A program made the position numbers and the translations under genes. This document shows positions 7,714-51,454 of a DNA stretch of 64,000 nucleotides, one piece after another. Under the pieces are notes generated by a model that saw nothing but the letters and a program-made list of their open reading frames with translations, was not told the DNA's origin and did not search any database. The stretch lies in the sequence record PZ386970.1; one strand, 5' to 3'. The DNA is from a phage. Position 1 is the first letter of the stretch; every line of letters begins with the position of its first letter.

Positions 7714-8814
7714 TTACGCTGTGAAGATTTTATCCCACATCGCAACAACTGCATCTCGATTATACTTCTTCCATACTGCTTCAGCACGTTTAACTCGAGC
7801 TTCGTATGTGTCAGTGAATTCTAATACAGCTTTTGTGTAAAGCGCAACTACTTCTTTCTTAGGAGTAGAAGAATCAATTTCTACACGCACAGTATCTGGG
7901 TCATATTCGAATGTCGCATGAGGATAATCCTTAAAAACTAACTGGATTACAGGGACACCTTTAGAGATGGCTTCAATAGAACTATTCTCTACCGTACCTG
8001 TGTCAGGACACGTATTAATAAGTGCTTTAGCTGTTTTAAGACGTTCCATAATTTCACTGTGTGGAGCATCAATAATAACAGGATATTTAGCTGGTGGTGC
8101 CCATTTACTAGGACAGTATCCTGCACCATTTTCGCCTAGTGCTTTAATCGCTTCAAGAGCAACATCAGTACGACGCATTTTAGTGTCATAACGTTGTGCA
8201 CTAATAATCAGATCAGTCGCCGGAAGAACTTCAGGTTTCTCATTCAAACAAATAACCGGATAATCTTCGGCTTCAAACAACGGATTTGCTCGCCAATAAT
8301 CATAATCAATTTTGTCAGTCAGTCCCGAAGTCATATAACAATATTTACGTTCAAATTCACGGAAGGCTTTAGTAGGAGCATAACTCTTACCACCATTCTT
8401 ATGAATTTGAATAGTCTGGTCCCAAATTTGAACAATGCCACGAGATACCGGCTCAAATGGTGTTGCCATAAAATTCTTATGAACTTTAGAGAGACCTGCG
8501 TCTTTAATTGCCTGAACGGTTAGTTTGGTCGGTTCCATTGTAACAACGAAATCGTACTCATTAATGCCGGCTAGTTCAACAATCTTACGAGCCATAGTAT
8601 AACTCATACCTAGACTGAATTTAGTCAGATGACCAACAGGATGATGATTAACCTTCCAATCACCAAATGTGTCATTATCAAAGCCGATATAATCAATATC
8701 AGCACCGATGGACACAAGATATTTCAACACATTTAAATGTACTGCTTCAAGACCACCTTGTACACGTTCTGGGTTAAATGGGACTGCGCGAGATGGGATA
8801 AACATAACTTTCAT
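7714..8814 (-). CDS. GT-B fold glycosyltransferase (GT4-like), candidate DNA sugar transferase
   Basis: 366 aa; N-terminus MKVMFIPSRAVPFNPERVQGGLEAV is the GT-B donor-scaffold signature; C-terminal E..SIEAISKGVPVI motif; lies between rIIA and 39. Confidence 0.7.
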   Translation of the reverse strand: MKVMFIPSRAVPFNPERVQGGLEAVHLNVLKYLVSIGADIDYIGFDNDTFGDWKVNHHPVGHLTKFSLGMSYTMARKIVELAGINEYDFVVTMEPTKLTVQAIKDAGLSKVHKNFMATPFEPVSRGIVQIWDQTIQIHKNGGKSYAPTKAFREFERKYCYMTSGLTDKIDYDYWRANPLFEAEDYPVICLNEKPEVLPATDLIISAQRYDTKMRRTDVALEAIKALGENGAGYCPSKWAPPAKYPVIIDAPHSEIMERLKTAKALINTCPDTGTVENSSIEAISKGVPVIQLVFKDYPHATFEYDPDTVRVEIDSSTPKKEVVALYTKAVLEFTDTYEARVKRAEAVWKKYNRDAVVAMWDKIFTA

Positions 8815-12843: not shown

Positions 12844-13367
12844 CATTTTAGCAAAATAAAATCAACTTGTTCTGCCAATGAACGTCTAAACATTAATTGA
12901 CAACTTCCGAGTATGAAATCAGGTGCTTCATAGACCGCGATGTAGTATCCTTTAGCTTTCAAGAGTTCAACATCCACTTGGTCATCAAACCATGCATAAA
13001 CCGCGTCAACACTTTCAAATCCAAAATAGAACCCTTGAGCCCAATCTTCGCTCAATTCAAATGTGTGCTCAATTCTATAGTATCTTAAGATATTTTGTTC
13101 AAGGAGTTTGTCTTCATTTACTGTAGGACGATTAGGGACGTTATAGTTGTCGCCGTGATGGTAGAAGTTACCTGAGAGTATTCCATGCTTATCAAGGAAC
13201 TCCCATGTTTCTTCAGAGTTGTCGGTGCCCGACCAACCGTATGGTGAGCGAGGTTCTTTATTCCAAGAGGTTTCCCAAATTCTGACGGCTTTGCCGTCTT
13301 CGATAGCAATTCCTGGTAATGATTCACGTTGAGTACAAAAACTACGTTCTACGCGGTAAACTAACAT
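12843..13367 (-). CDS. hypothetical protein (174 aa from MLVYRVE)
   Basis: start placed downstream of promoter 13388-13425 after GAGGAG RBS. Confidence 0.5.
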   Translation of the reverse strand: MLVYRVERSFCTQRESLPGIAIEDGKAVRIWETSWNKEPRSPYGWSGTDNSEETWEFLDKHGILSGNFYHHGDNYNVPNRPTVNEDKLLEQNILRYYRIEHTFELSEDWAQGFYFGFESVDAVYAWFDDQVDVELLKAKGYYIAVYEAPDFILGSCQLMFRRSLAEQVDFILLK

Positions 13368-13387
13368 ATTATTCTCCTCTGGTTGAT

Positions 13388-13425
13388 ATGGCTCTATAAT
13401 ATCAAATCCAGAGGAGAAGTAAACA
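13388..13425 (-). promoter_or_regulatory. early-type promoter (family A)
   Basis: GTTTAC, spacer, TATTAT then AGAGCCATATCAAC. Confidence 0.45.
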
Positions 13426-13428
13426 ACT

Positions 13429-13848
13429 TTATGCAAAAGATGCTGGACAATATTTTTTGATTCGGAACTCAGGAACTACCATGAACTGCCCGGCAAAAAC
13501 AATGTTGTAAAGCTTGACACCATCTTCAACCCATTGGTCGCTAATAAATCCGGCAATTTGCTTAGTTTTCCATGGTGTTCCATCAGTTGCAGCAGAAATA
13601 GTAAATTCATGGTCTTTTACAACTAAAACAGACCTGCACAGTTTCCATTTGAATGCTTTTTCTTCTGGTTCAATGAACCGGCTTTTAACGTAACCAATGT
13701 TACCATCAGCGTCACGAACTTTAACTTCGTTACGTCCAAAAACCGGATCACTTACATAAAGGACTTCAACCAACTTCCCAGCAACTTTAGAGCGAGAAGC
13801 ATCTGATACGTGTACATAATCACCAATAGAGAGATTTGCAATATTCAT
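13429..13848 (-). CDS. hypothetical protein, member 1 of a tandem three-gene paralogous family
   Basis: shares SDASRSKxAGxLVEV and GFISDQWVEDGxKLYNIVF motifs with the two genes upstream. Confidence 0.5.
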   Translation of the reverse strand: MNIANLSIGDYVHVSDASRSKVAGKLVEVLYVSDPVFGRNEVKVRDADGNIGYVKSRFIEPEEKAFKWKLCRSVLVVKDHEFTISAATDGTPWKTKQIAGFISDQWVEDGVKLYNIVFAGQFMVVPEFRIKKYCPASFA

Positions 13849-13857
13849 AATAATTCC

Positions 13858-14313
13858 TTAAGCTTTACGAGGAGATACATAGCGAGTGATTTCAGATTCT
13901 TTAACAACTCGGAAGTCACCTAAGAATACGATATTGTATAACTTTTCACCATCTTCAACCCATTGGTCACTAATGAAGCCACACATAGTATCAGTTTTGC
14001 TTGGATAACCGTATTCATCGATGAAGTCAAATTCTTTATCAGTCTGGAATTCAACACCTTTACACAAGACCCATTTGAACTGTACATTAGGTTCAGTAGA
14101 AGCAAAATGAGCGCTCACATGAGTTTCCAAGAATTTAGGACTTACGTAAGCGTACTGAGTTTCAGTTTTTCCAGAACTAGGAATGATTCGAACTTTAACT
14201 TCTTTAACACGACCAGTACCATTAGTACGAAGTCCTACCACTTCAACTAGACGACCTGCAGCTTTAGAACGAGATGCAGACGATACACGCTTAATTTCAC
14301 CAATAGTAATCAT
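13858..14313 (-). CDS. hypothetical protein, paralogue 2 (from MITIGEIKRV)
   Basis: paralogue motifs; start trimmed to lie downstream of promoter 14335-14372. Confidence 0.5.
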   Translation of the reverse strand: MITIGEIKRVSSASRSKAAGRLVEVVGLRTNGTGRVKEVKVRIIPSSGKTETQYAYVSPKFLETHVSAHFASTEPNVQFKWVLCKGVEFQTDKEFDFIDEYGYPSKTDTMCGFISDQWVEDGEKLYNIVFLGDFRVVKESEITRYVSPRKA

Positions 14314-14334
14314 AATTTCTCTCTCTTTGTTTAA

Positions 14335-14372
14335 ATTGAATTCACTATACTCCATCCATCCTTGGATGTACA
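14335..14372 (-). promoter_or_regulatory. early-type promoter (family B variant, palindromic spacer)
   Basis: TTGTACA, spacer GGATGGATGGAG, TATAGT. Confidence 0.45.
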
Positions 14373-24821: not shown

Positions 24822-25070
24822 TTATTCTTTTTCGCGAATAATAATTACTTGTTGAGGCTGCTGAGCCGATTTCTTTTCGGCAACGATAGACCAAATTAAA
24901 GTTCCAATCCAACCAACCATCGTCCAGTTAAAGAGTAAAGATACAAAGAAGATTGCTGTTGTGCTTTTTGTGCCACGAATAAGTGCGATTACCCAAGGCA
25001 ACATGTAAATGATGATTGAACCAATACCTGCGATTAAAACTGCTACTGAACTAGCTACGAATAATTCCAT
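24822..25070 (-). CDS. small membrane protein (82 aa)
   Basis: two predicted TM helices. Confidence 0.5.
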   Translation of the reverse strand: MELFVASSVAVLIAGIGSIIIYMLPWVIALIRGTKSTTAIFFVSLLFNWTMVGWIGTLIWSIVAEKKSAQQPQQVIIIREKE

Positions 25071-25131: not shown

Positions 25132-25500
25132 TTAATTAAATTTGTTTAAACGTTCAATACACTGGACGTAGTTATTCGCGATTTGTTTCTGGGTAGGCTC
25201 TTTACCAGTTGTTTCAACATAGCGAATGAATGCGATTTCAGTAGCCTGTAGGCAATGTTCTTTAACGCGTTGTTCTTTTGACAATGCGACAGTATCAGAA
25301 TCACGATAACGTTGAGCATGAGCATCAGCTTGAATCATTCGATTACCTACAGTAACCGGGTCTTCCACTTCAACTTTAGGTTGGTCGTACTGTTTAACAT
25401 TCGGATTGTAAATCAGTTGGCCAACGTTATTAGGGATAAAGCCATGAGCACCACATCCAGTTAATCCAAATACCATTGCTAAAGCGATTAATTTTTTCAT
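25132..25500 (-). CDS. putative lipoprotein (122 aa)
   Basis: MKKLIALAMVFGLTGC lipobox. Confidence 0.5.
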   Translation of the reverse strand: MKKLIALAMVFGLTGCGAHGFIPNNVGQLIYNPNVKQYDQPKVEVEDPVTVGNRMIQADAHAQRYRDSDTVALSKEQRVKEHCLQATEIAFIRYVETTGKEPTQKQIANNYVQCIERLNKFN

Positions 25501-27817: not shown

Positions 27818-28159
27818 TTAAAAGAATTTAAATTTTTTCTTGGTCCGTTCATTAAAAGCTTGTTGTACTTGCATTGTAACACATTTTTCAACATGTGGTG
27901 CAAGTTCTGCTTTTCTGTCTTGGTCAAGAACTGCAAAGTCCATTACGATTTTACCATCAACCCAGTCTAGTTTTGTAATATAGACTATATGATGAGAACC
28001 ATCTTCAAGTGTAATCAGAATCTCTTGAATGACATTTTCCATTGCTGAACGGATAATTTTAAGAGATTCATTAAACACTCGTTCTTTGCGAATGTCTTCC
28101 CCTTCCGAAGAAGGGGATTCATCAACGATTTCTAGATTTAAATCATCAAGATTATTCAT
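27818..28159 (-). CDS. 40: hypothetical protein at the gene 40 position (113 aa from MNNLDDL)
   Basis: synteny between 41 and uvsX; size close to T4 gp40; no motif verified. Confidence 0.4.
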   Translation of the reverse strand: MNNLDDLNLEIVDESPSSEGEDIRKERVFNESLKIIRSAMENVIQEILITLEDGSHHIVYITKLDWVDGKIVMDFAVLDQDRKAELAPHVEKCVTMQVQQAFNERTKKKFKFF

Positions 28160-29324
28160 CGAAATCTTCCATTTCGTCAAGGTCATTTTCTATATCTGCT
28201 GCAGACGGAGCATCAGAAGTTTTAACCGGAACTTTAGTTGTTGCTTTGCAATTAATAAGGTCGTTAACAGCGTCATCAACTTCTTTAATAGAAGAGATAG
28301 CACCTAGTTTATATTTAGTTTCAATTGCATCTCGGAAAGGTTTGTGTTTAAACAACGGTCCCCAGAATTCTACACAATCAGTAGCTTTAGCACGCCACGA
28401 TTTCTCTTCACGAATCATTTCACCTGTTTCTTCGTCAAGGAATTCACGAGCATACCAACCAGCTTTAGGCTTAACAACAAATCCAATTTCAGTTGCCATT
28501 TCTAACAAGCCACTGAATGGGTCGATACCACCATCAAAATTAACTGTGATTGGGAAAGTAGATTTTTCTTTAACAGTACGAGATTTTTCTGCTTTCAACG
28601 TGAAGTCATAACCTGTCAATTCTGTACCTTCTTTAACCTGACGTTTAGAGATAAAGAATACAGTGTTAGCAGAGTAAAGAATACCTGTACCACCACCCAT
28701 AATCTCTTTAGGATACAATCCACCAATTTCCATTGCGGTATGGTTAATTGCAACACACGGAATATCTTTAATAGTCAGATACGGGGTCACAATACGGAAA
28801 AGAGATTTAAGTGCCTTAGCACGAGACATATCACCTACGACTTTCTCGTTCAATGCATCTTCGGTTTCTTTCTTAGATGCAGTATTACCGATTGAATCGA
28901 TAAAGATAATAACTTTATCACCGCGTTCAATTGCATCAAGCTGATTAGTCATATCAACTTTAAGTTGTTCGACGGACTGAATTGGTGTATGAACTACACG
29001 GTCTAAATCAACACCCATTGAACGGAAGTAAGATTCTGAAGCACCGAATTCCGAGTCATAAAACAAACAGATTGCATCTTTATATTTCTTCATATACGCT
29101 GCAACCATGGTCAGCCCAAACAATGTTTTAAAGTGTTTAGAAGGAGCAGCAAAAATAGTTAAGCCTGATTGCAACCCGGCATTCAGTGCACCACCTAATG
29201 CAATATTCAACATCGGAATACGAGTAGGGACTTCATCACGATTATTAAACAGCTTAGACTTAGTCAAGTCGGCAGTCATTTTAGAAGTAGAAGCTTTAAT
29301 CAGACGAGATTTTAAATCAGACAT
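28152..29324 (-). CDS. uvsX: UvsX recombinase (RecA-like)
   Basis: 390 aa; RecA-like core; acidic C-terminus. Confidence 0.9.
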   Translation of the reverse strand: MSDLKSRLIKASTSKMTADLTKSKLFNNRDEVPTRIPMLNIALGGALNAGLQSGLTIFAAPSKHFKTLFGLTMVAAYMKKYKDAICLFYDSEFGASESYFRSMGVDLDRVVHTPIQSVEQLKVDMTNQLDAIERGDKVIIFIDSIGNTASKKETEDALNEKVVGDMSRAKALKSLFRIVTPYLTIKDIPCVAINHTAMEIGGLYPKEIMGGGTGILYSANTVFFISKRQVKEGTELTGYDFTLKAEKSRTVKEKSTFPITVNFDGGIDPFSGLLEMATEIGFVVKPKAGWYAREFLDEETGEMIREEKSWRAKATDCVEFWGPLFKHKPFRDAIETKYKLGAISSIKEVDDAVNDLINCKATTKVPVKTSDAPSAADIENDLDEMEDFDE

Positions 29325-29402: not shown

Positions 29403-29432
29403 TTTAAAACTTTAAATGGCTCTTAACGAGCC
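29400..29432 (-). terminator. hairpin (GGCUC-GUUAA-GAGCC) with U-rich tail 3' of kinase gene
   Basis: short stem, AU-rich downstream. Confidence 0.3.
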
Positions 29433-29971
29433 CATTTAATGATTTCTGTAATCAAATAATTACGTTCGCTTGCATTAAATCCTATAACTTTGTTAGCACC
29501 ATCATGATTAAGTAATTGATACGTTTGGATTTTGTTATGAATTGCAAACTCTTCAAAATATGAAATGACTGTATTAAAACCGAATGAAGACAAAGTAATA
29601 AGGTCGTCTTCAAAACTTTCAGTCATTTCGTTACGTGTTAAAATAATTGTGAACACATCATGGTTTTGGCAAAGACGAACATAATCCTGTTCATAAACGT
29701 CAAGAACCGAGTCCACATCTTGTCGAATACGTCCATAAACCCAGTTACTAATATATCCACGGTCTAACAGATAAATCTTAGTAGGGTCTAAATAATTCAA
29801 CATCGTTTCGAAACAACCAACTTCATTTCGAGACTTAACATCGAAACGCCCATCAACTGTTCGTTTAGGGAAATCAATCTTTACATATCTTTCACTAATT
29901 TCCATTATGTCATTAATGAAAGTTGTTTTACCAGCATTATCTGGGCCGTCTACTAAAATAATTTTAGCCAT
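29423..29971 (-). CDS. P-loop nucleotide kinase, thymidylate kinase-like
   Basis: Walker A ILVDGPDNAGKTT; downstream DRGY motif resembling the Tmk DRx motif; 182 aa. Confidence 0.55.
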   Translation of the reverse strand: MAKIILVDGPDNAGKTTFINDIMEISERYVKIDFPKRTVDGRFDVKSRNEVGCFETMLNYLDPTKIYLLDRGYISNWVYGRIRQDVDSVLDVYEQDYVRLCQNHDVFTIILTRNEMTESFEDDLITLSSFGFNTVISYFEEFAIHNKIQTYQLLNHDGANKVIGFNASERNYLITEIIKWAR

Positions 29972-29972
29972 T

Positions 29973-30872
29973 TTATTCCTCGATTACGACATCTTCGTAT
30001 TTAGGTATATTATACGGTGAAGAAATTAAAGCATTAAAGTAGATGAACTCACCAAGACCTGGATGGAATACTTCTTCAGGATTTTCGAAATATTGAATTT
30101 TCGGACGTCCTTTAAGAATTTGATAGTACTCAGTTTTAGTTGGATTAAAAATTCGAATCAGCGCTTCTTCAGGATACTTATTTCTGTCGAAACTATTATT
30201 TGGATCAGTTATATAAAGCGGTTGACCTAATTGAATTGCGCATTCAACAACTTGTTCAAAACGATAGCATGGGTCACTAATTCGAAATGGATGAAAAATA
30301 CCATCTAGATGAATAGGAGCCAAATCACCTACAAGACGCTGCATGATGGAAGGACGTATAACTTTCTGAGTTACGATAATCTTATTACCATCTGCACCTG
30401 CGTTAACCAGCACTTCTTTTTGACGTTCATTCAACACAGTAGTTTGAAGTGAACGATTAACTGACAACATATCGGTTTTTAAGAATTCGTCAATATAAAA
30501 ACGTGGTTTATTAGGGTCTGCCGTGATATTGAAATTGAATTCTACATCAAAAGCGCCGTCATATCCAGTGATATCTGTTATTAGAAAATCACAATCATAA
30601 TAAGCAATTAATGAATCAACCACAAATTCATTTTCAGACCAGAAATATTTACGAGTGTTATACGCGTTATCTTTATACCATAATGGAACAAACTTAAATT
30701 CCGGGAAAAGACGTTCACATTCTTTAATATCAGATGCATTACGTGGATATGTAATCACATCACCCGGATTAGCACGGTGCAAATGAAGTTGGAAGTTGCC
30801 ATCCTTAAGGATAGCATACTGTCCAGTTTCATAAGACCGCATACTCAAGATTGGTACGCGGAAAATAGCCAT
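29973..30872 (-). CDS. hypothetical protein (299 aa), cluster member of unknown function
   Basis: TAATG-coupled to the hydroxymethylase-like gene; no family recognised. Confidence 0.5.
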   Translation of the reverse strand: MAIFRVPILSMRSYETGQYAILKDGNFQLHLHRANPGDVITYPRNASDIKECERLFPEFKFVPLWYKDNAYNTRKYFWSENEFVVDSLIAYYDCDFLITDITGYDGAFDVEFNFNITADPNKPRFYIDEFLKTDMLSVNRSLQTTVLNERQKEVLVNAGADGNKIIVTQKVIRPSIMQRLVGDLAPIHLDGIFHPFRISDPCYRFEQVVECAIQLGQPLYITDPNNSFDRNKYPEEALIRIFNPTKTEYYQILKGRPKIQYFENPEEVFHPGLGEFIYFNALISSPYNIPKYEDVVIEE

Positions 30873-31588
30873 TAGTCAAGGAATCCTTTAACATAATCAA
30901 AATCACGTTCAAACACATGGGCACTTACCATGGTATGAGTATAATCACCAACTTCTACACCACATTCGTTAGCGATATAATGAAGTAATTTTCCTTGGAG
31001 ATAAAAATCCAACTGCATAACAACAGCACAATTCTGAGAACGCATATGACAGTGGGTATAAAGCTTACCATCACGAATATAATAAGTCACTGAGTCAGTA
31101 CATGGATATTCAAGCGTTTCGTCCGAATCAAGCAAAGCCTGATCAGAACTTTCTAGAATTTGGAACACAACTCTTCGGGAGTTAGGCTTCTCTTTAAGTT
31201 CTTTTAGAAGAGCTGGTAATTGGGCCGCAATTCGAGGACCATAGAAAGTGTTGAAGTTCGCAGGCAAAGCATCTGATTTTGGTTTAGAAATAAATTTAGC
31301 GACATTAGGATATGCCTTAAACGCTTCTTCTGCATCAGTACCACCAGAAATCATAAACTTCCAGAAATCTTCGGCATATTCATAAGAGATGCGGTTAATA
31401 CGTGGGTCGGTCATTTTGAATGATGATGGAGTGTCAACAACTACTGTCATGGACCCAATTTCATTACAACGTCCAATACGAGAATCAGTTACGAATTCCG
31501 GGTTTTCTAAAATTTCACGATTGACTGCTTTAAATGCGGCTTGAAAATCTGCTGCTTTGATATATTTCATTGTGTTATGTTTTCCCAT
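30872..31588 (-). CDS. 42: thymidylate synthase-family pyrimidine hydroxymethylase, gp42-like (dCMP hydroxymethylase), divergent
   Basis: KPNSRRVVFQI and PCTDSVTYYIRDGKL align with T4 gp42 NPDSRRGIMIY and MCTNTVQYLIRDKKI (catalytic Cys); 238 aa. Confidence 0.7.
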   Translation of the reverse strand: MGKHNTMKYIKAADFQAAFKAVNREILENPEFVTDSRIGRCNEIGSMTVVVDTPSSFKMTDPRINRISYEYAEDFWKFMISGGTDAEEAFKAYPNVAKFISKPKSDALPANFNTFYGPRIAAQLPALLKELKEKPNSRRVVFQILESSDQALLDSDETLEYPCTDSVTYYIRDGKLYTHCHMRSQNCAVVMQLDFYLQGKLLHYIANECGVEVGDYTHTMVSAHVFERDFDYVKGFLD

Positions 31589-31607
31589 GTTTACCTCAAT
31601 ACAATTT

Positions 31608-31633
31608 ATTATATACTCAATTCGTAAAGCTTA
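31608..31633 (-). promoter_or_regulatory. putative middle-type promoter (GCTTTAC box, 11 nt, TATAAT)
   Basis: upstream of the hydroxymethylase-like gene. Confidence 0.3.
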
Positions 31634-31870
31634 TTTGAATTTCTTGGCAATGTTGATATAACGTAAAGCTTCAGAATCTATACTTCCAAGAACACTATGA
31701 AGGAATGCATCAGTGTAGTATTCCAATTGAACAGGTTCTTTAATCACTTTAGCCGCTTTGGTTTCAAACAGGCCCATCAGGGCCTTTTTAAGAATTTGTT
31801 CGTTAGTGTTCAGTTTTATAGTCAAAATCTCTTCATTAAGTTTATAATTAAAAGTTTTTCTAGAAATCAT
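31631..31870 (-). CDS. hypothetical protein (79 aa)
   Basis: ORF only. Confidence 0.4.
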   Translation of the reverse strand: MISRKTFNYKLNEEILTIKLNTNEQILKKALMGLFETKAAKVIKEPVQLEYYTDAFLHSVLGSIDSEALRYINIAKKFK

Positions 31871-33027
31871 TCCGGGTACCTCAAAGCGTCATCAGAGTTA
31901 GTTATATCAATAATAGATATAGAGTTTTCTGCTAACCCGTTTTTAGATAATTGACGTTTATAATACCTTTCACAATATGTACACGTTGACCCACAGATTT
32001 CATTAGCACAATCAAAATCCGGATGTCTGAACCACCTTTTTTCTAAAAAGCCATCTAACAAAGAGGTTTCAATATTTACTGTATGTGAAAACTCAGTCTC
32101 ATTTTCAAGAGTGAAAATAGTCTCTAAAGGCTTCCACAGTTCTAACAAATTACCTTCAAACTTTTCAGAAGCGTATGCTTCAAGAACTTTCAAAATGTAG
32201 TCTGTGCTACCTGTACGTCCTGAAACTTTGAATTGAGTGATACCAATATCATTATAAAGTTTCAAATCTTGTGGACGAACAAAACGAGTTCTCAACCAGT
32301 TAAACGGGTCTGTATCACGAGCTTTAATACAGTGCTGCATAGGATATCCATTTAAGGATTTAGCATCATCAGCTGTAACATCAGTACTATGGAAAATATA
32401 GCAAGAGTCACGATAGCTACAATGTGTTGTATACCCTTTACCAGCATTAGAACAGAACTCATTTACAAGAACTTCAAATATTATATTGTTTTTATTGCAA
32501 AACTCTGCTGCACGCTTCAGGAAAGAAACTGAACGGTTCTTATGAATTCCACAGCAGACCTTTTTGATATTATACTGGTCATGTAAGTATTTGATTTGAG
32601 TTACAGCATCGACATGTAGAATTGTTGAAACTTCAATCTCAATGTCTTTATTGACTTCACGAACAATTTCCATAACAACAGGGTTAGCGATAGTAATACG
32701 CCATACGCCTATTGACCAAAGATACTGAACATAATCCTGAATAGCTTTCTTCTTCCACTCAACTAGTTCTCTTTTTGAACCAGGATTTATCGTGTTGAGT
32801 GTATAGTTAAAGCAAATACCTAATTCGTTACAACGTTTAACATAATCTTCTAACATCTTTTTGTCAACGTCAGGAAGCCTAAAATCAGGTCTGGCTGCTA
32901 CAAAAGCCATTTCTCTTGTAGAGCCGTATACTTCGTTTATCAAGCTATTAGGATAAGTTTTATTGAGCTCTACGATTTTATCAAGAAGAGCTAAATCAAA
33001 ATTCGTTCCGATTTTAAAAGTATTCAT
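31867..33027 (-). CDS. Cys-rich putative metalloenzyme, weak resemblance to peptidase-U32-family Fe-S proteins
   Basis: 386 aa; EVLVNEFCSNAGKGYTTHCSY resembles the U32 signature; additional C-terminal CxxxxCxxxCxxC; N-terminal pattern similar to U32 barrel. Confidence 0.35.
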   Translation of the reverse strand: MNTFKIGTNFDLALLDKIVELNKTYPNSLINEVYGSTREMAFVAARPDFRLPDVDKKMLEDYVKRCNELGICFNYTLNTINPGSKRELVEWKKKAIQDYVQYLWSIGVWRITIANPVVMEIVREVNKDIEIEVSTILHVDAVTQIKYLHDQYNIKKVCCGIHKNRSVSFLKRAAEFCNKNNIIFEVLVNEFCSNAGKGYTTHCSYRDSCYIFHSTDVTADDAKSLNGYPMQHCIKARDTDPFNWLRTRFVRPQDLKLYNDIGITQFKVSGRTGSTDYILKVLEAYASEKFEGNLLELWKPLETIFTLENETEFSHTVNIETSLLDGFLEKRWFRHPDFDCANEICGSTCTYCERYYKRQLSKNGLAENSISIIDITNSDDALRYPE

Positions 33028-33083
33028 TTTTTTGCATCTCGCGTTAATTGATGCGATGGTTTTTGCAGGTCTTACTTAAATTA

Positions 33084-33452
33084 TTATAGATTCGGTTTAT
33101 ATGATTTAAATGTTTCGAATTCGCCTTTATTCATAAGAGCTTTGAATTCGTCAGGACGCATAGCTTTGTCGTCGATAATCCAATCATATACTGGTTTATG
33201 TGTTAGCAAATTATGGTACTTCAAACCAATGTTTTCCAAGTTCTGAATCAGACTTGGGAGAATGTCAATTGCTATACGACCAGGACCTACTGACTTCATA
33301 CCACGAGCAGTGTAAAGCGTTATGGTATGCCCTGCATCATACAGGGCATTAATGGCAGACACCATTTCGACGTCTGGTTTGAAGTTCACGTAATCACGAT
33401 TGTTATTCCACTCTGTTATACAATCATCGACATCAAAACAAAGATTAAGCAT
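33084..33452 (-). CDS. small HAD-like phosphatase (122 aa from MLNLCFDVDD)
   Basis: FDVDDCIT (motif I-like), TARG, DWIIDDK (motif IV-like); resembles KdsC-type phosphatases; motif I imperfect. Confidence 0.35.
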   Translation of the reverse strand: MLNLCFDVDDCITEWNNNRDYVNFKPDVEMVSAINALYDAGHTITLYTARGMKSVGPGRIAIDILPSLIQNLENIGLKYHNLLTHKPVYDWIIDDKAMRPDEFKALMNKGEFETFKSYKPNL

Positions 33453-33469
33453 GTTTTCTACACGGTGCA

Positions 33470-35155
33470 TTAGATTCGTTCCCATTGATGAGTGATATCG
33501 CCACCGATTGGACGATAGGAAACACCAGTTTCTTTATCAGTTAGTACCCATTTACCAGGATTTTTTGTAATCAGAGTAGCCGTTACAGGTTCTGCTACGT
33601 CATAACTAATAGAGCCGTCCTGAAGTACACGGCCCATGTTACGTAATTGCTTAGTCAGAAGTTCCATGCCTTTATAATATGCGGCTACCGCTTTAAGTGG
33701 ATTATTCTTGAAATAACCACCCAATGCAATCCAGATAATTGCCACCGCCAAATGATGATACTCGTTAAACGAACTCATCTTTCCATATTTGTAAACTAAT
33801 GGATTGATGTTAATAGTCACATTACAAGTTGTTTCATCAATAGTAAACTGACCCCAGGTCGGATTAGCATTGAATTCATCATAACCTGAAACAGCATAAA
33901 GCACTTTAGCTTCATCATATAATTTTGGCCCGTAAATCTTGGTTTCACCAAAATATCCACGAGGGTCGATAAACTTGACTTCGCCGTTATCAGTAATCAT
34001 AGTATTACTGAAGTTCGGGTCACCGTGAATAACAGAGTACTGTCCCTGAGAACGGTTATGATAACGAATAAGATGTTCTAAAGCTTGTTTCAACATTGGC
34101 TTCAGACGTCCAATCTTAGTGTAGTTCACGTGTGTGATTTTACCAAATGAATCAATCAATGGCTGAATGCTTTCACAACGATCAATAACTTTCGTATAGA
34201 ACTCTTTAGTGAAATCACGGCGAACAGTTTCAGGACTTACAAAATAAGTGTCTGTGCTGAATTTCAGTGCATCTAAAATTGCATCAACAATTTGTGGACG
34301 AGCAAGACTTGATTTGGATTTAATATATTCAAATGCCGGCTTACCTTTAATGCGTTCCATTTCAAAGTTATTTTCATTAACAGAAACTAACTGAGGAACT
34401 GAATCTGATTTCACTTTCAAATACCACGAAATCTCATCTTTCTGAAGAGCTCGACCCTGTTCGGTTAATGCGAATTTAGTTACAGTTTCTTCACCAATTT
34501 CAACTGCATTAAAACTACGATTAAGTTCACGAACTTCATGAGCTTTTTCAAGTTTAGGCATATCACCTAAATCAATTATATTCATAAGCTCTGATTTATT
34601 GAATGCGCCGCTGTAAAGGAATTCTACGAAATCACGTCCTTTGCAGTATTCATGAATTTCCTCATCGGTAGAACCCATATAGAATTCCCAGTCTTTGAAT
34701 TGATAAATTCCTACAACATTACCGCCTGTTGCACCTACATTAGTGATATTTTCACCGTCGAAATTATATCGACATTCATCACCCTTAACATAGATTGCGT
34801 TAACATTCCAAGACCATGAACCAAAATCAGGAATAATATCGCACCAGTTAACAATTACGTTATGGCCGTCTAAATCTTTGTGTAATTTAGCAAGAGCATA
34901 AGCAGAACCATACGCTTCATCAACTGTACGAATAGTCACATTGAACCCTTCTTGCTCACAATAAGCTCGAACAGTTTCAGCAAATTTTGAATGAACTACT
35001 ACAATAATTTCATCTGCGCCAAGGTCAGAATAAATTGTATATAAATTGCTCAGAATAGTGTCTTGTTTATAGTTAACAAGCACCTTAGGAATATGATGCG
35101 TTATTGGATACAAACGAGTTGCCAGTCCGGCACCAAGAATAACAGCTTTTTTCAT
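33470..35155 (-). CDS. bifunctional sugar-1-phosphate nucleotidyltransferase (N-terminal) / APH-like sugar kinase (C-terminal)
   Basis: N-terminus MKKAVILGAGLATRLYPIT (GxGTRL NTP-transferase motif); C-terminus VIHGDPNFSNTMI...FIDPRG (Brenner HGDxxxxN and DxE/D kinase motifs); 561 aa. Confidence 0.65.
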   Translation of the reverse strand: MKKAVILGAGLATRLYPITHHIPKVLVNYKQDTILSNLYTIYSDLGADEIIVVVHSKFAETVRAYCEQEGFNVTIRTVDEAYGSAYALAKLHKDLDGHNVIVNWCDIIPDFGSWSWNVNAIYVKGDECRYNFDGENITNVGATGGNVVGIYQFKDWEFYMGSTDEEIHEYCKGRDFVEFLYSGAFNKSELMNIIDLGDMPKLEKAHEVRELNRSFNAVEIGEETVTKFALTEQGRALQKDEISWYLKVKSDSVPQLVSVNENNFEMERIKGKPAFEYIKSKSSLARPQIVDAILDALKFSTDTYFVSPETVRRDFTKEFYTKVIDRCESIQPLIDSFGKITHVNYTKIGRLKPMLKQALEHLIRYHNRSQGQYSVIHGDPNFSNTMITDNGEVKFIDPRGYFGETKIYGPKLYDEAKVLYAVSGYDEFNANPTWGQFTIDETTCNVTININPLVYKYGKMSSFNEYHHLAVAIIWIALGGYFKNNPLKAVAAYYKGMELLTKQLRNMGRVLQDGSISYDVAEPVTATLITKNPGKWVLTDKETGVSYRPIGGDITHQWERI

Positions 35156-35183
35156 GTTGTGGTCCTCATTGGTAAGTAGGTGT

Positions 35184-35208
35184 ATTGTACACTATTCTAG
35201 TTAAAGCA
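35184..35208 (-). promoter_or_regulatory. MotA-type middle promoter (TGCTTTA, 12 nt, TACAAT) upstream of the nucleotidyltransferase-kinase gene
   Basis: exact MotA box core with canonical spacing to a TAnnnT -10. Confidence 0.45.
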
Positions 35209-35340
35209 TTCATACTTTGCCTGTAGACCAATCATAATCCATCCAATTACAAGTGTTGGAATCATTACTGGAGCCGTTAAGCTCCAGTAGATAGTCATGA
35301 CAAGCATCAATAGTAAAAGTCCTATTGTTATTGCTTTCAT
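35197..35340 (-). CDS. small membrane protein (47 aa)
   Basis: manual translation MKAITIGLLLLMLVMTIYWSL...; TAATG-coupled to SIS gene stop. Confidence 0.3.
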   Translation of the reverse strand: MKAITIGLLLLMLVMTIYWSLTAPVMIPTLVIGWIMIGLQAKYECFN

Positions 35341-35972
35341 TATTCGCCTCGTAACATGGCACCTAGTGCACCGCCAGGGTGGAACTTAAGGAAGTCATTA
35401 GAGGTAAATCCACGTTCAGAAGAAAGGTTGATAGCAAACGTATCGATAAGCGCTAACAACAATGTAGTGGACATTGTCGGAGCTAAAGAGTTCTCATCGA
35501 CCTCTACCGCGATGCCTGTACAGAAAGAGTAATCAAAAAGGGCTTCATTTTCTTGCGGAATGTCAGGGTTACAATGTAACAGAATCTGTTTAACCTGAGG
35601 ACGAATCATACGAAGATGTTTAGCAACACCTATCATTTCTTCGGTCTTACCAGAACGACTAATATGAATCAACACATCATTAGGCGCAATGAATCCTGCA
35701 TCACCGTGAGAATAATGCCCGGTGTTCAAGTACATACTAGGAATACCTAGTGAAGCAAATGTCTCAGAAGCTTTAGTTGCAATATTAGCATTCTTACCAA
35801 CACCTGTAATAATTACTCGGCTTTCATAATTACTAAGTCCTGGGCGTCGAAGAGTTTCTAGAATAGCATTATAACGAGCAGGGTTTTGACTAATTACTTT
35901 GGCCATAGTAGCCAAAGAAGAAGCTTGTTTTATGATTGCGTCAATAGCGATAGTGATTGGTGTAGTTTTCAT
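35340..35972 (-). CDS. SIS-domain sugar-phosphate isomerase, KdsD/GutQ-like (arabinose-5-phosphate isomerase-like), no CBS domains
   Basis: VIITGVGKNANIATKASETFASLGIPS...HISRSGKTEE and FLKFHPGGALG match the KdsD SIS domain; 210 aa. Confidence 0.7.
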   Translation of the reverse strand: MKTTPITIAIDAIIKQASSLATMAKVISQNPARYNAILETLRRPGLSNYESRVIITGVGKNANIATKASETFASLGIPSMYLNTGHYSHGDAGFIAPNDVLIHISRSGKTEEMIGVAKHLRMIRPQVKQILLHCNPDIPQENEALFDYSFCTGIAVEVDENSLAPTMSTTLLLALIDTFAINLSSERGFTSNDFLKFHPGGALGAMLRGE

Positions 35973-36012: not shown

Positions 36013-38724
36013 TCAAAAATCGAACATATCGAACAGAGATGCTTTCTTCTCGTAATCGAGTTTCGCTGCTGATGTGAATCCTTCAAGTGGTTTAATAAAT
36101 GTCTTCTCAAGGAGAACAGTGTAGTCCATCCAATGAAGTACGTCGTCTTTAATTAAATCTGTGATTTCAGTACCAGAAGGCCATGCGATACATTTATCAC
36201 CGAATGGGTTTCCATCACGTAAAGGCAGAACGTATACCTTTTCGCCTTCTACAACTTGTGGAGCATCAATATTACCTTTGATAGCCCGGTTATATGTCAG
36301 AATTCCACGAATATGGAACGGGCATTTAGGACCAGGGAATCCACCAACGTCATATTTAGCAATGTTATTCGCAGAAGATACCGACGCGATGCTAATATAA
36401 TTCAATTGACGGAATTCTTTTTCAAACTCTTTAAAATATTCTTGTAATGATTCTTCACCTTCTTGAAGCATACGACGAATACATTCTTTAAGAGCTTTCT
36501 GTACTGCTTTAGGGGTCGAAGATTTCTGAGTCTCTAGACCCATGATTTTGAGTTTAGGCTCAGCGTAACGAGTACCTTCCATATCCCACACGTTTAATGC
36601 ATAACGTTTCTTACCAGTCCAGAATCCACCAATACCTTTAGAACCAAGCGGAGGCCCAGCGATAGCTTCTCGGTCCATGAACATCAAATGTTGCTTATTA
36701 TTCATGTATTCGCACATTTCACGGAAACCTCTATCAATAGCAGGTTCCATACGTTCACGAGCGAACTTATCTAAGAAGTCTACCCAATGGTTGGTATCAC
36801 GGAATTTAGATTCACCAACCTTATCGATAATTTTATCAGCAGATACGTAAATAGAGTCTGTATCACCATAAAGAACGAAAGCTTCGCCTTCTGTACCACA
36901 AACTTCATTCAGATATTCATTAACTTTACGTTCAATCCACTGTAAAGCCATTTGCCCGAATGTTGTGATTGCAGTAGCATTACGCAAATCATAATAACGG
37001 AACCAAACGTTACCAAGTGCACCATAAAGTGAGTTGATAAGCAATTTACGGTTAATTTGTGCAGTCATACCTGCAACTTCAGTACGTTGAGCTCTAAACA
37101 GCATTTCATTAAGAGATTTAGCAGACAACTTTTTAATCTTTTCTTTAATCTCATCACTGAAGTCGAAACGATAATCAACATCTAATGGTTCGTCAACAGA
37201 AAGATTAGGATTATGCAATGCCTCTTTAATTATTTCACCATTACGTTGAGCTGCAAGCATGTAACCTTTATGTTCTTTACGTTGATTAAAGACCTTAGTG
37301 ATTTCAGTTGGAACTACACCATCACGGTCTTTATAATACATCATGCCGTTAGGAGAGCAACTGTACACATCTGAAGGACGTTCAGCAACAGCGTTAATAT
37401 AATCATGCAATGGAGCTACTTTAAACGTTCCTGCTATTGTTTCTGGGCTAATATTCACTTGGCGAATAATACTTGGATACAGAGATGTAAGGTCGAAACT
37501 CATTACATATTTGTATCGATTTGGAATAGGTTCCTTAACAAAAGCGCCTGGGTAAGGTTGAACTGGATGCGAACGACCTTGTGGAATCACCTTGTTCTGC
37601 TCTTTAAGGCTATTAAAAATAATAGCATCCCATGTTTTAATTGGGCTAAACACAGATTGAATCTGTATCTTAGCATAATAACCCATGTCCAAGCTCAAGT
37701 TAATGAACTGGCGTTTAGCATCAATTTGCAATACACGATACACGTCGATAATGTTATAAGAAATATATCGTTGGTGATTGCTTTCACGAAGCTTAGAAAT
37801 AGGGCCGTCGTATTTCAGTTTACCAACGTTCAATTCAAATTCTGAAATGTAATCCAGAGAATATGACGGTTGATTGGTAAAAGAGAATTTTTTGTAAAGG
37901 TCAATGTAATCAAGAACAGAGATACCGAACAATGTAATGATTTCACGAGAACCATACATGTTTTCGATAACTTTAACACGAGTTTTACGATGTGGCGATA
38001 AACGTTTCGCAGTAGATTCGCCAAAAATATTCTTGATTCGGTTATACACATATGGAATATCAAATGACTCAACGTTCCATCCAGTCAAAATGACAGGAGT
38101 TTTCTGTTGCCAGAAGTTGAGATATTCCATCAACAATTCTTTTTCGTTATCGAACGGCATATAAATGATTTTATCGATAATTTCAGATGGAACTTCATCA
38201 CCGCCTTGTTCTTGAAGCTTAGCCGCAATTTCGATAGACCATTCTTCTACATTACCATATGGAGAATTCAATAGATCAAATACGTAGAACCTGTCGTCAA
38301 TTGAGTCATAATGGGTGATAGCATCAATCGGATGTTTTGCTTGTGACGGCTCAGGGAACCCATCCGGAGATGTTACTTCGATGTCGAAGTTAGCCACACG
38401 AATTTTTGTATGGTCGTATTTGATTTCATAGTTATAAGTGTCAGACAAATACGCCAATTTGAAATCGTCCATGCCAAGTGCTTCAAGTCCGATATCTTCC
38501 ATGCGTTTAATCCATTGGGAGGCATCACGCATATTAGCGAACAACTTACGAGTACACGGCTTACCGTAGATATCGAAATATTTCGTAGCCTGACTTTCTG
38601 GACAATGAGCAAACAGTGATGGTTTATATTCTACTTCGCGAGTACGTTCACGGCCATTAGAATCGATGTAACGTTCAAAAATTGAATCACCAATCTGTTC
38701 AACCGTTAAGTAAAATTCTTTCAT
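36013..38724 (-). CDS. 43: DNA polymerase gp43 (family B)
   Basis: 903 aa; exo motifs FDIE and YNIIDV, pol motifs DLTSLYPS, KILINSLYG, YGDTDS. Confidence 0.95.
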   Translation of the reverse strand: MKEFYLTVEQIGDSIFERYIDSNGRERTREVEYKPSLFAHCPESQATKYFDIYGKPCTRKLFANMRDASQWIKRMEDIGLEALGMDDFKLAYLSDTYNYEIKYDHTKIRVANFDIEVTSPDGFPEPSQAKHPIDAITHYDSIDDRFYVFDLLNSPYGNVEEWSIEIAAKLQEQGGDEVPSEIIDKIIYMPFDNEKELLMEYLNFWQQKTPVILTGWNVESFDIPYVYNRIKNIFGESTAKRLSPHRKTRVKVIENMYGSREIITLFGISVLDYIDLYKKFSFTNQPSYSLDYISEFELNVGKLKYDGPISKLRESNHQRYISYNIIDVYRVLQIDAKRQFINLSLDMGYYAKIQIQSVFSPIKTWDAIIFNSLKEQNKVIPQGRSHPVQPYPGAFVKEPIPNRYKYVMSFDLTSLYPSIIRQVNISPETIAGTFKVAPLHDYINAVAERPSDVYSCSPNGMMYYKDRDGVVPTEITKVFNQRKEHKGYMLAAQRNGEIIKEALHNPNLSVDEPLDVDYRFDFSDEIKEKIKKLSAKSLNEMLFRAQRTEVAGMTAQINRKLLINSLYGALGNVWFRYYDLRNATAITTFGQMALQWIERKVNEYLNEVCGTEGEAFVLYGDTDSIYVSADKIIDKVGESKFRDTNHWVDFLDKFARERMEPAIDRGFREMCEYMNNKQHLMFMDREAIAGPPLGSKGIGGFWTGKKRYALNVWDMEGTRYAEPKLKIMGLETQKSSTPKAVQKALKECIRRMLQEGEESLQEYFKEFEKEFRQLNYISIASVSSANNIAKYDVGGFPGPKCPFHIRGILTYNRAIKGNIDAPQVVEGEKVYVLPLRDGNPFGDKCIAWPSGTEITDLIKDDVLHWMDYTVLLEKTFIKPLEGFTSAAKLDYEKKASLFDMFDF

Positions 38725-50983: not shown

Positions 50984-51454
50984 TTAATCATGTTTCCACA
51001 CCCCATCGGTATTTGACCAAAGTCGCTGATTATCTGATCCTCGCCACAGCTTTTTGGTCGGAAGATTTTTCTCATACTTCCCATCAATAATAACATCAAC
51101 ATATTTAAGCATTTCTAGCTGTTTAATATCTTCAAACTTATATCCTGTCCACAACCAAATGCTTTTATTAGGATAAAGATTTTTTACTGTTTGAACAATG
51201 CAATGAATAACATCTCGGTTATCAGGATAGAGAGGGTCACCTCCGGTTATAGTCAATCCTTCTATATAATCATTATTCAAACATTCAATTAATTGTTCTA
51301 GTGTTTCACCAGTGAATGGAATACCATTTCTAGCATTCCATGTTGATTTATTATAACACCCTTCGCATTTATGCAAACACCCTGTAACGAAAAGAACGAC
51401 CCTACAACCAGGGCCATTCACAAAATCGCAAGGATAAAACCTATCATAATTCAT
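50984..51454 (-). CDS. nrdG: anaerobic ribonucleotide reductase activating protein NrdG (radical SAM)
   Basis: 156 aa; CLHKCEGC (CxxxCxxC) radical-SAM motif, GGDP. Confidence 0.85.
   Translation of the reverse strand: MNYDRFYPCDFVNGPGCRVVLFVTGCLHKCEGCYNKSTWNARNGIPFTGETLEQLIECLNNDYIEGLTITGGDPLYPDNRDVIHCIVQTVKNLYPNKSIWLWTGYKFEDIKQLEMLKYVDVIIDGKYEKNLPTKKLWRGSDNQRLWSNTDGVWKHD

Follow-up and report, generated by a model that had tools for sequence, protein, structure and literature searches.

The stretch of phage DNA analysed here (sequence record PZ386970.1; 64,000 nucleotides, hereafter the window) comes from a Mosigvirus, a phage of the T-even type, and carries an island of nine minus-strand open reading frames (ORFs) at positions 29423–35972, between uvsX (28152–29324) and gene 43 (36013–38724). 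Four of the ORF junctions within the island overlap or abut. The ORF list agrees exactly, in number, orientation and coordinates, with the nine co-oriented genes of a preliminary description made from the sequence. The T4 genes in this interval are segA, b-gt, 42, imm and imm.1; Agt and Bgt, which that description found to be absent from the syntenic positions, have no homologue in the whole 64-kb window (tblastn, best E values 2.8–4.0). Over its 6.5 kb, the island shares 98% identity with its counterpart in Escherichia phage PhAPEC2 and matches 155 deposited phages at 95–99% identity, mostly of the genus Mosigvirus. It is no chance feature, because 152 deposited phage genomes hold at least 80% of it. 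Gene for gene it corresponds to RB69 gp45–gp55, and all the enzymes that it encodes retain their catalytic motifs intact. We describe the genes of the island, which very probably constitute the arabinosyl-5-hydroxycytosine (ara-5hoC) DNA hypermodification system of RB69-type phages, and consider what its U32-family gene may contribute.

The gene at 30872–31588 encodes a 238-residue protein (RB69 gp48) with a Thymidylat_synt Pfam domain that is identical at 235 of 238 positions (98.7%) to the crystallised thymidylate synthase (TS)-fold deoxycytidine monophosphate (dCMP) 5-hydroxylase, or 5-hydroxy-dCMP (5hodCMP) synthase (PDB 9iqc/9ir2). Alignment to E. coli ThyA and T4 gp42 reveals C146 together with L143E, N177D and D169N, the published signature of 5-hydroxy-dCMP synthases; at position 169, gp42 has Asp and the window protein Asn. 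The two proteins share 25% identity (E=2.5e-10), and the C-terminal folate tail is missing from the window protein. By these features it is not a folate-dependent hydroxymethylase of the gp42 type, and the divergent gp42-like hydroxymethylase of the preliminary description is instead a dCMP 5-hydroxylase that uses flavin and O2. Activity of this kind is experimental for RB69 gp48 and DLP3 gp80; RB69 gp48 makes 5hodCMP in vivo, takes 18O from O2 and binds flavin (PMC13326640).

Three genes that are encoded together, with products 98–100% identical to RB69 proteins, would supply the sugar donor. The 210-residue SIS-domain protein (35340–35972; RB69 gp55 homologue) matches the hidden Markov models of KpsF/GutQ (TIGR00393, E=4.7e-32) and KdsD (E=1.3e-30) as well as PHROG 5670 (E=7e-116), and contains the motifs GVGKN and SRSGKT. 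By family, it is a predicted D-arabinose-5-phosphate isomerase that would convert host ribulose 5-phosphate to arabinose 5-phosphate (Ara5P); PMC13326640 (NAR 2026) also gives this role, as a computational prediction. A 561-residue bifunctional protein at 33470–35155, of the RB69 gp52:53/HY126 AfhE type, joins an N-terminal sugar-1-phosphate nucleotidyltransferase (NTase; ~34550–35155; NTP_transferase E=8.4e-10, residues 3–99; LicC-like PDB match 1jyk) to a C-terminal APH-like kinase (~33470–34520) with the motifs HGDPNFSN (residues 377–384) and IDPR (residues 396–399). The small HAD phosphatase at 33084–33485 (133 residues; RB69 gp51/HY126 AfhF type) has DVDDCI as motif I and matches TIGR01689, a capsule-biosynthesis phosphatase model (E=1.9e-13). 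He et al., as relayed by PMC13326640, showed Ara5P kinase and UDP-arabinose pyrophosphorylase activities for HY126 AfhE, and conversion of arabinose 1,5-bisphosphate (Ara-1,5-P2) to arabinose 1-phosphate (Ara1P) for AfhF. The route in this relayed account leads from Ara5P to Ara-1,5-P2 (kinase), on to Ara1P (HAD) and finally to UDP-arabinofuranose (UDP-Araf; NTase). The kinase domain, phosphatase and NTase domain encoded in the window would act in the same order, with HAD removing the 5-phosphate. Dephosphorylation before phosphorylation, as envisaged in the preliminary description, reverses this sequence. Table 1 of PMC13326640 departs from the text of the same paper and has HAD convert Ara5P to arabinose and the kinase convert arabinose to Ara1P.

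The 299-residue product of the gene at 29973–30872 (GT1; RB69 gp46:47) has no Pfam match and no PDB match by sequence search. Its AlphaFold2 (AF2) model (mean pLDDT 93.8) adopts a GT-B fold, and the best Foldseek match is the retaining glycosyltransferase MshA (3c4q, E=7e-7). GT1 is a GT-B glycosyltransferase, and the island therefore contains a transferase of its own, which the preliminary description missed; its other domain assignments (KdsD-like SIS, HAD, NTase plus APH-like kinase, U32 and Tmk-like) are borne out by HMMs, motifs and PHROG matches, although it gave the U32 protein no role. GT1 is a putative first arabinosyltransferase acting on the 5-hydroxyl. Its genus counts equal those of the TS-like gene, across 349 phage records.

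A second arabinosyltransferase, GT2 (366 residues; 7714–8814, minus strand), is encoded outside the island, between rIIA and topoisomerase II. It is identical to RB69 gp3 at 363 of 366 positions, and its match in the PDB is the UDP complex of the HY126 glycosyltransferase (9iqz/9ir0, E=2.6e-248), in agreement with the DNA glycosyltransferase role that the preliminary description gave it. GT1 would place the first arabinose on the 5-hydroxyl and GT2 would add the second, giving the di-arabinosyl form, roles that PMC13326640 likewise assigned by inference only.

The island gene nearest uvsX (29423–29971; RB69 gp45) encodes a 182-residue thymidylate-kinase-like (Tmk-like) P-loop nucleotide kinase with the P-loop GPDNAGKT and a match to PHROG 761, 'thymidylate kinase' (E=8e-45). 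Its homologues occur with GT1 and a hydroxylase gene in DLP1, JS98, PspYZU05 and two metagenomic or uncultured loci (L019 and L032). Single glycosyltransferases failed to arabinosylate 5-hydroxycytosine (5hoC)-containing DNA in vitro, and first arabinosylation on the nucleotide was not distinguished from that on DNA (PMC13326640). Because of this failure and the conserved gene order TS-like/GT1/Tmk-like, it is a possibility that the first arabinose is added at the mononucleotide level, the Tmk-like kinase then phosphorylating the bulky product.

In JS98 (Dhakavirus; L011, 3400–8600), genes for the NTase-kinase, HAD, Tmk-like, TS-like and GT1 proteins are present, and at this locus neither a SIS isomerase nor a U32 protein is detectable. 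The isomerase is therefore optional too; JS98 presumably draws Ara5P from host KdsD or GutQ.

A system of this composition is already known, published and structurally documented. Thomas et al. 2018 (PMC6024577) found arabinose on RB69 DNA, assumed hydroxymethylcytosine (hmC) as the base, and proposed gp3, gp52:53 and gp55 as transferase and UDP-arabinose enzymes. Using mass spectrometry (MS) and NMR, Lee et al. (NAR 2026, PMC13326640) placed arabinose in RB69 and DLP3 in ether linkage directly on C5 of 5-hydroxycytosine; in both DNAs only arabinosylated 5hoC was reported, replacing all C. Arabinosylated 5-hydroxycytosine was shown for RB69, HY126, Bas46/47 and DLP3 in 2025–2026, with mono- or di-arabinosyl-5-hydroxy-dC in place of C in the virion DNA of RB69, NP and Bas46/47 (PMC13326640; PMC13390438), and the DLP3-type Acinetobacter phages make tri-arabinosyl-5hoC (PMC13326640). 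The island and GT2 match RB69 gp45–gp55 plus gp3 and the HY126 Afh cluster (Lee et al. 2026; He et al., Nat Chem Biol 2026; Mahler et al., Cell Host Microbe 2025) in genes, order and protein sequence (90–100% identity). Nothing substantive distinguishes them; the window has intact 299-, 561- and 79-residue ORFs, and those corresponding to the 299- and 561-residue ORFs are split in the old RB69 record. The HY126 GenBank record gives no gene names.

Taken together, these correspondences make it highly probable that the island specifies ara-5hoC. The TS-fold enzyme would hydroxylate dCMP at C5 with O2 and flavin, and a deoxynucleoside monophosphate (dNMP) kinase encoded outside the island would phosphorylate 5hodCMP to its diphosphate, allowing 5hoC to take the place of C in DNA, both steps as in close homologues; UDP-Araf made by the kinase, HAD and NTase activities would then feed GT1 and GT2. 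The preliminary description had correctly anticipated a phage-encoded route from ribulose 5-phosphate through Ara5P to an activated arabinose for DNA glycosylation, independent of host UDP-glucose. Its acceptor, hmC, does not agree with the base published for the relatives. The model that it put forward, with a gp42-like enzyme making hmC, Ara5P being dephosphorylated, rephosphorylated at C1 and nucleotidylylated, and the transferase at 7714–8814 forming arabinosyl-hmC, was the published view of RB69 in 2018 (PMC6024577), can appeal to the distant relationship (25% identity) between the TS-like protein and gp42, and finds its dephosphorylate-then-phosphorylate wording kept in Table 1 of PMC13326640. 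We nevertheless consider it very improbable here. NMR and MS data place the arabinose on C5 through the oxygen of 5hoC (PMC13326640), and a 2026 survey calls the 2018 assignment erroneous (PMC13390438). D169N is unlike gp42, the TS-like protein is 98.7% identical to a crystallised hydroxylase, the text of PMC13326640 relays the order Ara5P, Ara-1,5-P2, Ara1P, UDP-Araf, and the model overlooks GT1 inside the island. For close relatives, arabinosyl-hmC has already been refuted. Some points weigh against the ara-5hoC assignment as well: the base is carried over to this phage from the DNA of close relatives and is to that extent a prediction; the kinase-then-phosphatase order rests on He et al. 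2026 as relayed by PMC13326640; and the GT1 activity and the SIS reaction are predictions in all homologues alike.

The ara-5hoC system resembles two familiar pathways. It shares with T4 hmC glucosylation the uvsX–43 slot and a TS-fold enzyme that modifies dCMP before replication, after which GT-B enzymes add sugar. It differs in that the window would use flavin/O2 hydroxylation (D169N) where T4 uses folate-dependent hydroxymethylation, and arabinofuranose from a phage-made donor, with no Agt or Bgt, in place of host UDP-glucose. The ADP-heptose pathway (GmhA, HldE, GmhB) likewise comprises a SIS isomerase, an anomeric kinase that yields a bisphosphate, a HAD phosphatase that takes off the distal phosphate and an NTase, with kinase and NTase fused. 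There, however, the sugar is a heptose rather than a pentose, the SIS protein is of the GmhA rather than the KdsD/KpsF type, and the HldE kinase has a ribokinase fold, unlike the APH-like kinase of the island.

The island explains the resistance of a large group of therapeutic-candidate coliphages (Mosigvirus and relatives) to restriction enzymes and CRISPR. As this part of the story has been published, finding it again adds little, and the value of the locus lies in the leftover U32 gene.

This gene (31867–33027; RB69 gp50) encodes a 386-residue U32-family protein, predicted to bind an Fe-S cluster, that matches Peptidase_U32 (PF01136, E=7.3e-11; 42.2 bits versus a cutoff of 22.4). Its AF2 model (mean pLDDT 90.4) has the U32 protein 5d88 as its best PDB fold match; as a TIM barrel, the fold is similar to that of sugar isomerases/epimerases and of MTHFR too. 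Sequence search against the PDB gave no matches, and because the fold search returned only the old 5d88 structure and generic TIM barrels, there is no solved U32 hydroxylase for comparison. Among the E. coli U32 proteins, the family profile best matches RlhA (E=2.5e-5, 192 columns, hhalign probability 75%), and the matches to UbiU (E=0.012) and TrhP (E=0.004) are weak. Placement of the subfamily is loose, because hhalign against single E. coli sequences gives weak to moderate scores. The invariant C203, C209 and C233 align with the [4Fe-4S] ligands C169, C176 and C193 of UbiU, and the cysteine columns also coincide with the essential C169/C176 of RlhA. C192, invariant in 118 of 119 divergent representatives, could serve as a further ligand. 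The RNA-associated C-terminal domains of RlhA (DUF3656) are missing; a C-terminal tail of the form CX4CX3CX2C is conserved in 92–107 of the 119 representatives and could bind a second Fe-S cluster. Within this tail, residues 345–352 (CGSTCTYC; 31972–31995, minus strand) have the radical-SAM-type pattern CX3CX(aromatic)C, with C340 ahead of it. Proteins of this subfamily have ~360–390 residues and form 464 representative clusters at E<=1e-30, and their profile misses the canonical U32 families. Across genera the U32 protein is 82–86% identical, compared with 73–79% for DNA polymerase.

Characterised relatives are O2-independent hydroxylases: RlhA forms ho5C2501 in 23S rRNA, TrhP forms ho5U34 in tRNA, and UbiU/UbiV (anaerobic ubiquinone) belong to the same group; RlhA needs prephenate, and UbiUV take their oxygen from it (PNAS 2024). 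The phage proteins share with them the U32 domain, three cysteines in Fe-S ligand columns and a genomic tie to prephenate supply, and the pyrimidine C5 hydroxylation carried out by RlhA and TrhP is the chemistry that we propose for the phage U32 protein. They differ in forming a distinct subfamily with an unaligned fourth ligand and the CX4CX3CX2C tail, and in being phage-encoded among dNMP and DNA-glycosylation genes.

The tie to prephenate is seen in 56 phage genomes from more than 12 host genera, in which an AroQ chorismate mutase (CM) gene lies between the U32 and TS-like genes (CM_2 scores 36–45 bits versus a cutoff of 27). In a metagenomic lineage that is ~50% identical (L030), U32 is followed by a fused DAHP-synthase/chorismate-mutase, and at another locus a DAHP-synthase-family gene adjoins it. 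An FMN-reductase-type Flavodoxin_2 gene in an uncultured 169-kb phage (L032, 5715–8555; L031, 1–123) stands directly upstream of D169N TS-like, GT1 and Tmk-like genes; its product is plausible as a dedicated supplier of reduced flavin to the TS-like hydroxylase, mirroring the CM gene beside U32.

U32 behaves as an optional cassette and not as a step of the pathway. It is absent from Acinetobacter phage DLP1, Pseudomonas phage PspYZU05, E. coli phage JS98 and Enterobacter phage Q7622, all of which keep the NTase-kinase, HAD, TS-like, GT1 and Tmk-like genes; in Entb_45, of the same genus as Q7622, it sits exactly between the HAD and TS-like genes. GT1 accompanies the TS-like gene, U32 or both. 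It occurs beside a D169N TS-like gene, U32 being absent, in DLP1, PspYZU05, JS98, Q7622, L031 and L032, with U32 and no TS-like homologue within the visible flanks in the metagenomic loci L019, L020, L021, L027, L028 and L029, where 5–8 kb are visible on each side of U32, and with both genes in this window, RB69, Entb_45, LC53, TG1 and 92A1. The hosts of the 222 U32-bearing phage records appear to be Enterobacterales or Shewanella only, that is, facultative anaerobes; the TS-like gene (374 matches) is also found in 57 Acinetobacter and 20 Rhizobium phages. Behind this host contrast stand tallies by genus, spread samples of 60 rows and direct inspection of four loci. Metagenomic U32 genes neighbour those for dCMP deaminase, dUTPase, Tmk, deoxynucleoside kinase (dNK), uracil-DNA glycosylase, ThyX and replication proteins. 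Most of these loci have no sugar-activation genes, yet carry GT1, Tmk, dCMP deaminase or dUTPase; in L021, U32 lies beside SIS, NTase-kinase and epimerase genes, and in L019 its stop codon overlaps a gene for a TAGT-family DNA-base glycosyltransferase.

These features suggest that the U32 protein may be an O2-independent, prephenate-dependent cytosine C5-hydroxylase, a non-homologous alternative to the TS-fold enzyme, a proposal to which we give about an even chance. It would make the same 5-hydroxypyrimidine without O2, so that DNA could be modified in anoxic habitats such as the gut; in this phage, E. coli PheA and TyrA would have to supply the prephenate. By the same token, and with the balance just as fine, the phage proteins could represent a new, largely viral U32 subfamily that hydroxylates deoxycytidylate or DNA cytosine, RB69-type phages carrying both hydroxylases and thereby hypermodifying DNA over the full range of oxygen levels. 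On this view, many uncultured phages seem to depend on U32 only. The pair NrdAB/NrdDG of T-even phages provides a precedent for O2-dependent and O2-independent enzymes at the same step of nucleotide-pool metabolism. That pair of ribonucleotide reductases is experimentally established, whereas pairing of the TS-like and U32 hydroxylases is a hypothesis for which it serves as an analogy only. The window encodes an NrdG homologue (50987–51454, minus strand) that is 81% identical to T4's, and the phage is thus equipped for anoxic dNTP synthesis.

A step in synthesis of the sugar donor would suit the position of the U32 gene, which is part of the block of sugar genes and is found between those for the HAD and TS-like proteins. 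The BASEL annotation 'putative enzyme involved in UDP-arabinose biosynthesis', the label 'sugar or heterocycle reductase' for RB69 gp50 in Table 1 of PMC13326640, the TIM-barrel shared with sugar isomerases and epimerases, and the SIS, NTase-kinase and epimerase neighbours in L021 all point the same way. Such a role is nonetheless unlikely: tri-arabinosyl-5hoC is made in DLP-type phages without U32, PspYZU05, JS98 and Q7622 have NTase-kinase and HAD without it, and the path from Ara5P to UDP-Araf in HY126 is assigned, in the relayed account, to AfhE and AfhF alone. Moreover, U32 genes mostly occur in metagenomes away from sugar-activation genes, and pentose chemistry offers no reason for the link to chorismate mutase. 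We regard it as similarly improbable that the protein is unrelated to DNA modification, acting as a hydroxylase of host or phage rRNA or tRNA, or as a peptidase. The characterised pyrimidine-directed U32 enzymes all act on RNA, and the family is annotated as peptidase or collagenase everywhere; the phage proteins, however, have their own CX4CX3CX2C tail in place of DUF3656, and their genes are found consistently among those for dNMP metabolism and DNA glycosylation, translationally coupled to GT1- or TAGT-type transferases. Peptidase activity is not established for the Fe-S U32 clades.

A nucleic-acid hydroxylase that complements the TS-like enzyme, acting on DNA cytosine, on dUMP to give 5-hydroxyuracil, or at another ring position, is somewhat less improbable than either of these, though still doubtful. 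A gene for dCMP deaminase, a source of dUMP, lies next to U32 or close by in L004, L018 and L027; the coupling in L019 is to TAGT, whose family has DNA bases as its substrates; and the work on RB69 and DLP3 could not tell nucleotide-level from DNA-level first arabinosylation (PMC13326640). On the other hand, only arabinosylated 5hoC was reported in RB69 and DLP3 DNA, where it replaces all C, and nothing in the sequence discriminates between the substrates.

The proposal that U32 is the O2-independent cytosine hydroxylase has its own weaknesses. The role is read from sequence and genomic context; the match to RlhA is moderate and those to TrhP and UbiU are weak; the fourth ligand of the expected pattern CX6CX15-16C...C is unaligned; and none of the U32 hydroxylases has been reconstituted in vitro (PNAS 2024). 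JS98 and Q7622 do without U32 on facultative anaerobes, and this window, like all Mosigviruses, has no chorismate mutase gene. A TS-like gene could lie elsewhere on the U32-only metagenomic contigs. PMC13326640 makes no mention of U32, peptidase, prephenate or chorismate; PMC6024577, the Thanatos paper and a phage transposon-sequencing (Tn-seq) preprint contain no role or data for U32; and the literature yielded nothing relevant on the Afh gene names, on U32 with hydroxycytosine or on LC53 with chorismate, He et al. 2026 and Mahler et al. 2025 (Cell Host Microbe) lying outside the scope of that search. These two papers may already address U32. We hold the hydroxylase reading at even odds because the role is a prediction, one ligand is unaligned and similarity to RlhA is moderate, and further because some coliphages do without U32, the metagenomic contigs are partly visible, and He et al. 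or Mahler et al. may have treated the subject before.

A small, soluble phage U32 protein with a simple nucleotide substrate and a known product, 5hodCMP, could give the field its first tractable assay. Standards for 5hodCMP and liquid chromatography-MS (LC-MS) assays exist, and in relatives a prephenate-supplying enzyme adjoins U32. If the proposal holds, phage DNA hypermodification would be adapted to oxygen availability, with relevance for phage therapy in the anoxic gut, and 5-hydroxypyrimidine DNA modification would extend to several hundred uncultured phage lineages without a TS-type enzyme.

Several U32 loci have features of their own. L019 (3777–12179) contains, in addition to U32, genes for a DXD glycosyltransferase, Tmk-like and GT1-like proteins, TAGT, dUTPase/dCTP deaminase and UDP-galactopyranose mutase, and no TS-like gene; this gene content suggests a system, so far undescribed, that would modify DNA with galactofuranosyl-hydroxypyrimidine. 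A module of Tmk-like, radical-SAM/SPASM, GT1-like and U32 genes recurs in L020, L027, L028 and L029, directly upstream of genes for a PolIII-alpha replicase and RecA; these loci are from uncultured phages. L005 has a second, divergent U32-like gene (13227–14360; 22% identity, E=1.5e-17) 4 kb from the first, together with NT5C, dNK, an NMN transporter and a nucleoside deoxyribosyltransferase, and adjoins a gene for a dockerin/GH43 protein, which suggests an anaerobic cellulolytic host. In Serratia phage LC53 (L002, 6352–6990), a putative homing endonuclease gene has inserted itself after HAD and separates it from U32. As this insertion occupies the same junction at which the U32 cassette is gained and lost, the arrangement suggests a recombination hot spot.

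The start of a 79-residue ORF (31631–31870; RB69 gp49), here termed X, overlaps the U32 stop codon, an arrangement typical of translational coupling. Its product has no Pfam match and no CM_2 match even at E<=10. We rejected X as a chorismate mutase: BLASTP against the LC53 enzyme gave E=16, hhalign against the phage CM family gave a probability of 1.3%, and X is a separate gene beside CM in Yersinia phage TG1 and Serratia phage 92A1. The X family is restricted to Mosigvirus-like phages, with many truncated variants, and is frameshifted or truncated in HY126 (40 residues), JS09, AV116 and TU01. Identity within Mosigvirus is 85–100% compared with at least 99% for U32, indicating faster evolution, and a YYxDAFxHSxxG motif is invariant. 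X might be an accessory factor of U32 or a decaying gene.

The remaining island gene (35197–35340; RB69 gp54 homologue, PHROG 3610) encodes a predicted membrane protein of 47 residues that is conserved in Entb_45, LC53, Q7622 and JS98; transmembrane segments are annotated in the LC53 record. Homologues of T4 Imm (64% identity; 24825–25070, minus strand) and Imm.1 (25147–25494, minus strand) are found ~5 kb from their T4 position beside gene 43, displaced by the island. The middle-promoter pattern of a MotA box and a –10 element (TGCTTYA-N10-13-TANNNT) occurs 18 times in the window compared with 2.1 expected, and none of 100 shuffled controls reaches 18. One such site (35184–35208, minus strand), upstream of the NTase-kinase gene, is a predicted promoter by sequence match, and further MotA-like matches on the same strand lie inside the island at 35734–35757, 33878–33903 and 30009–30033.

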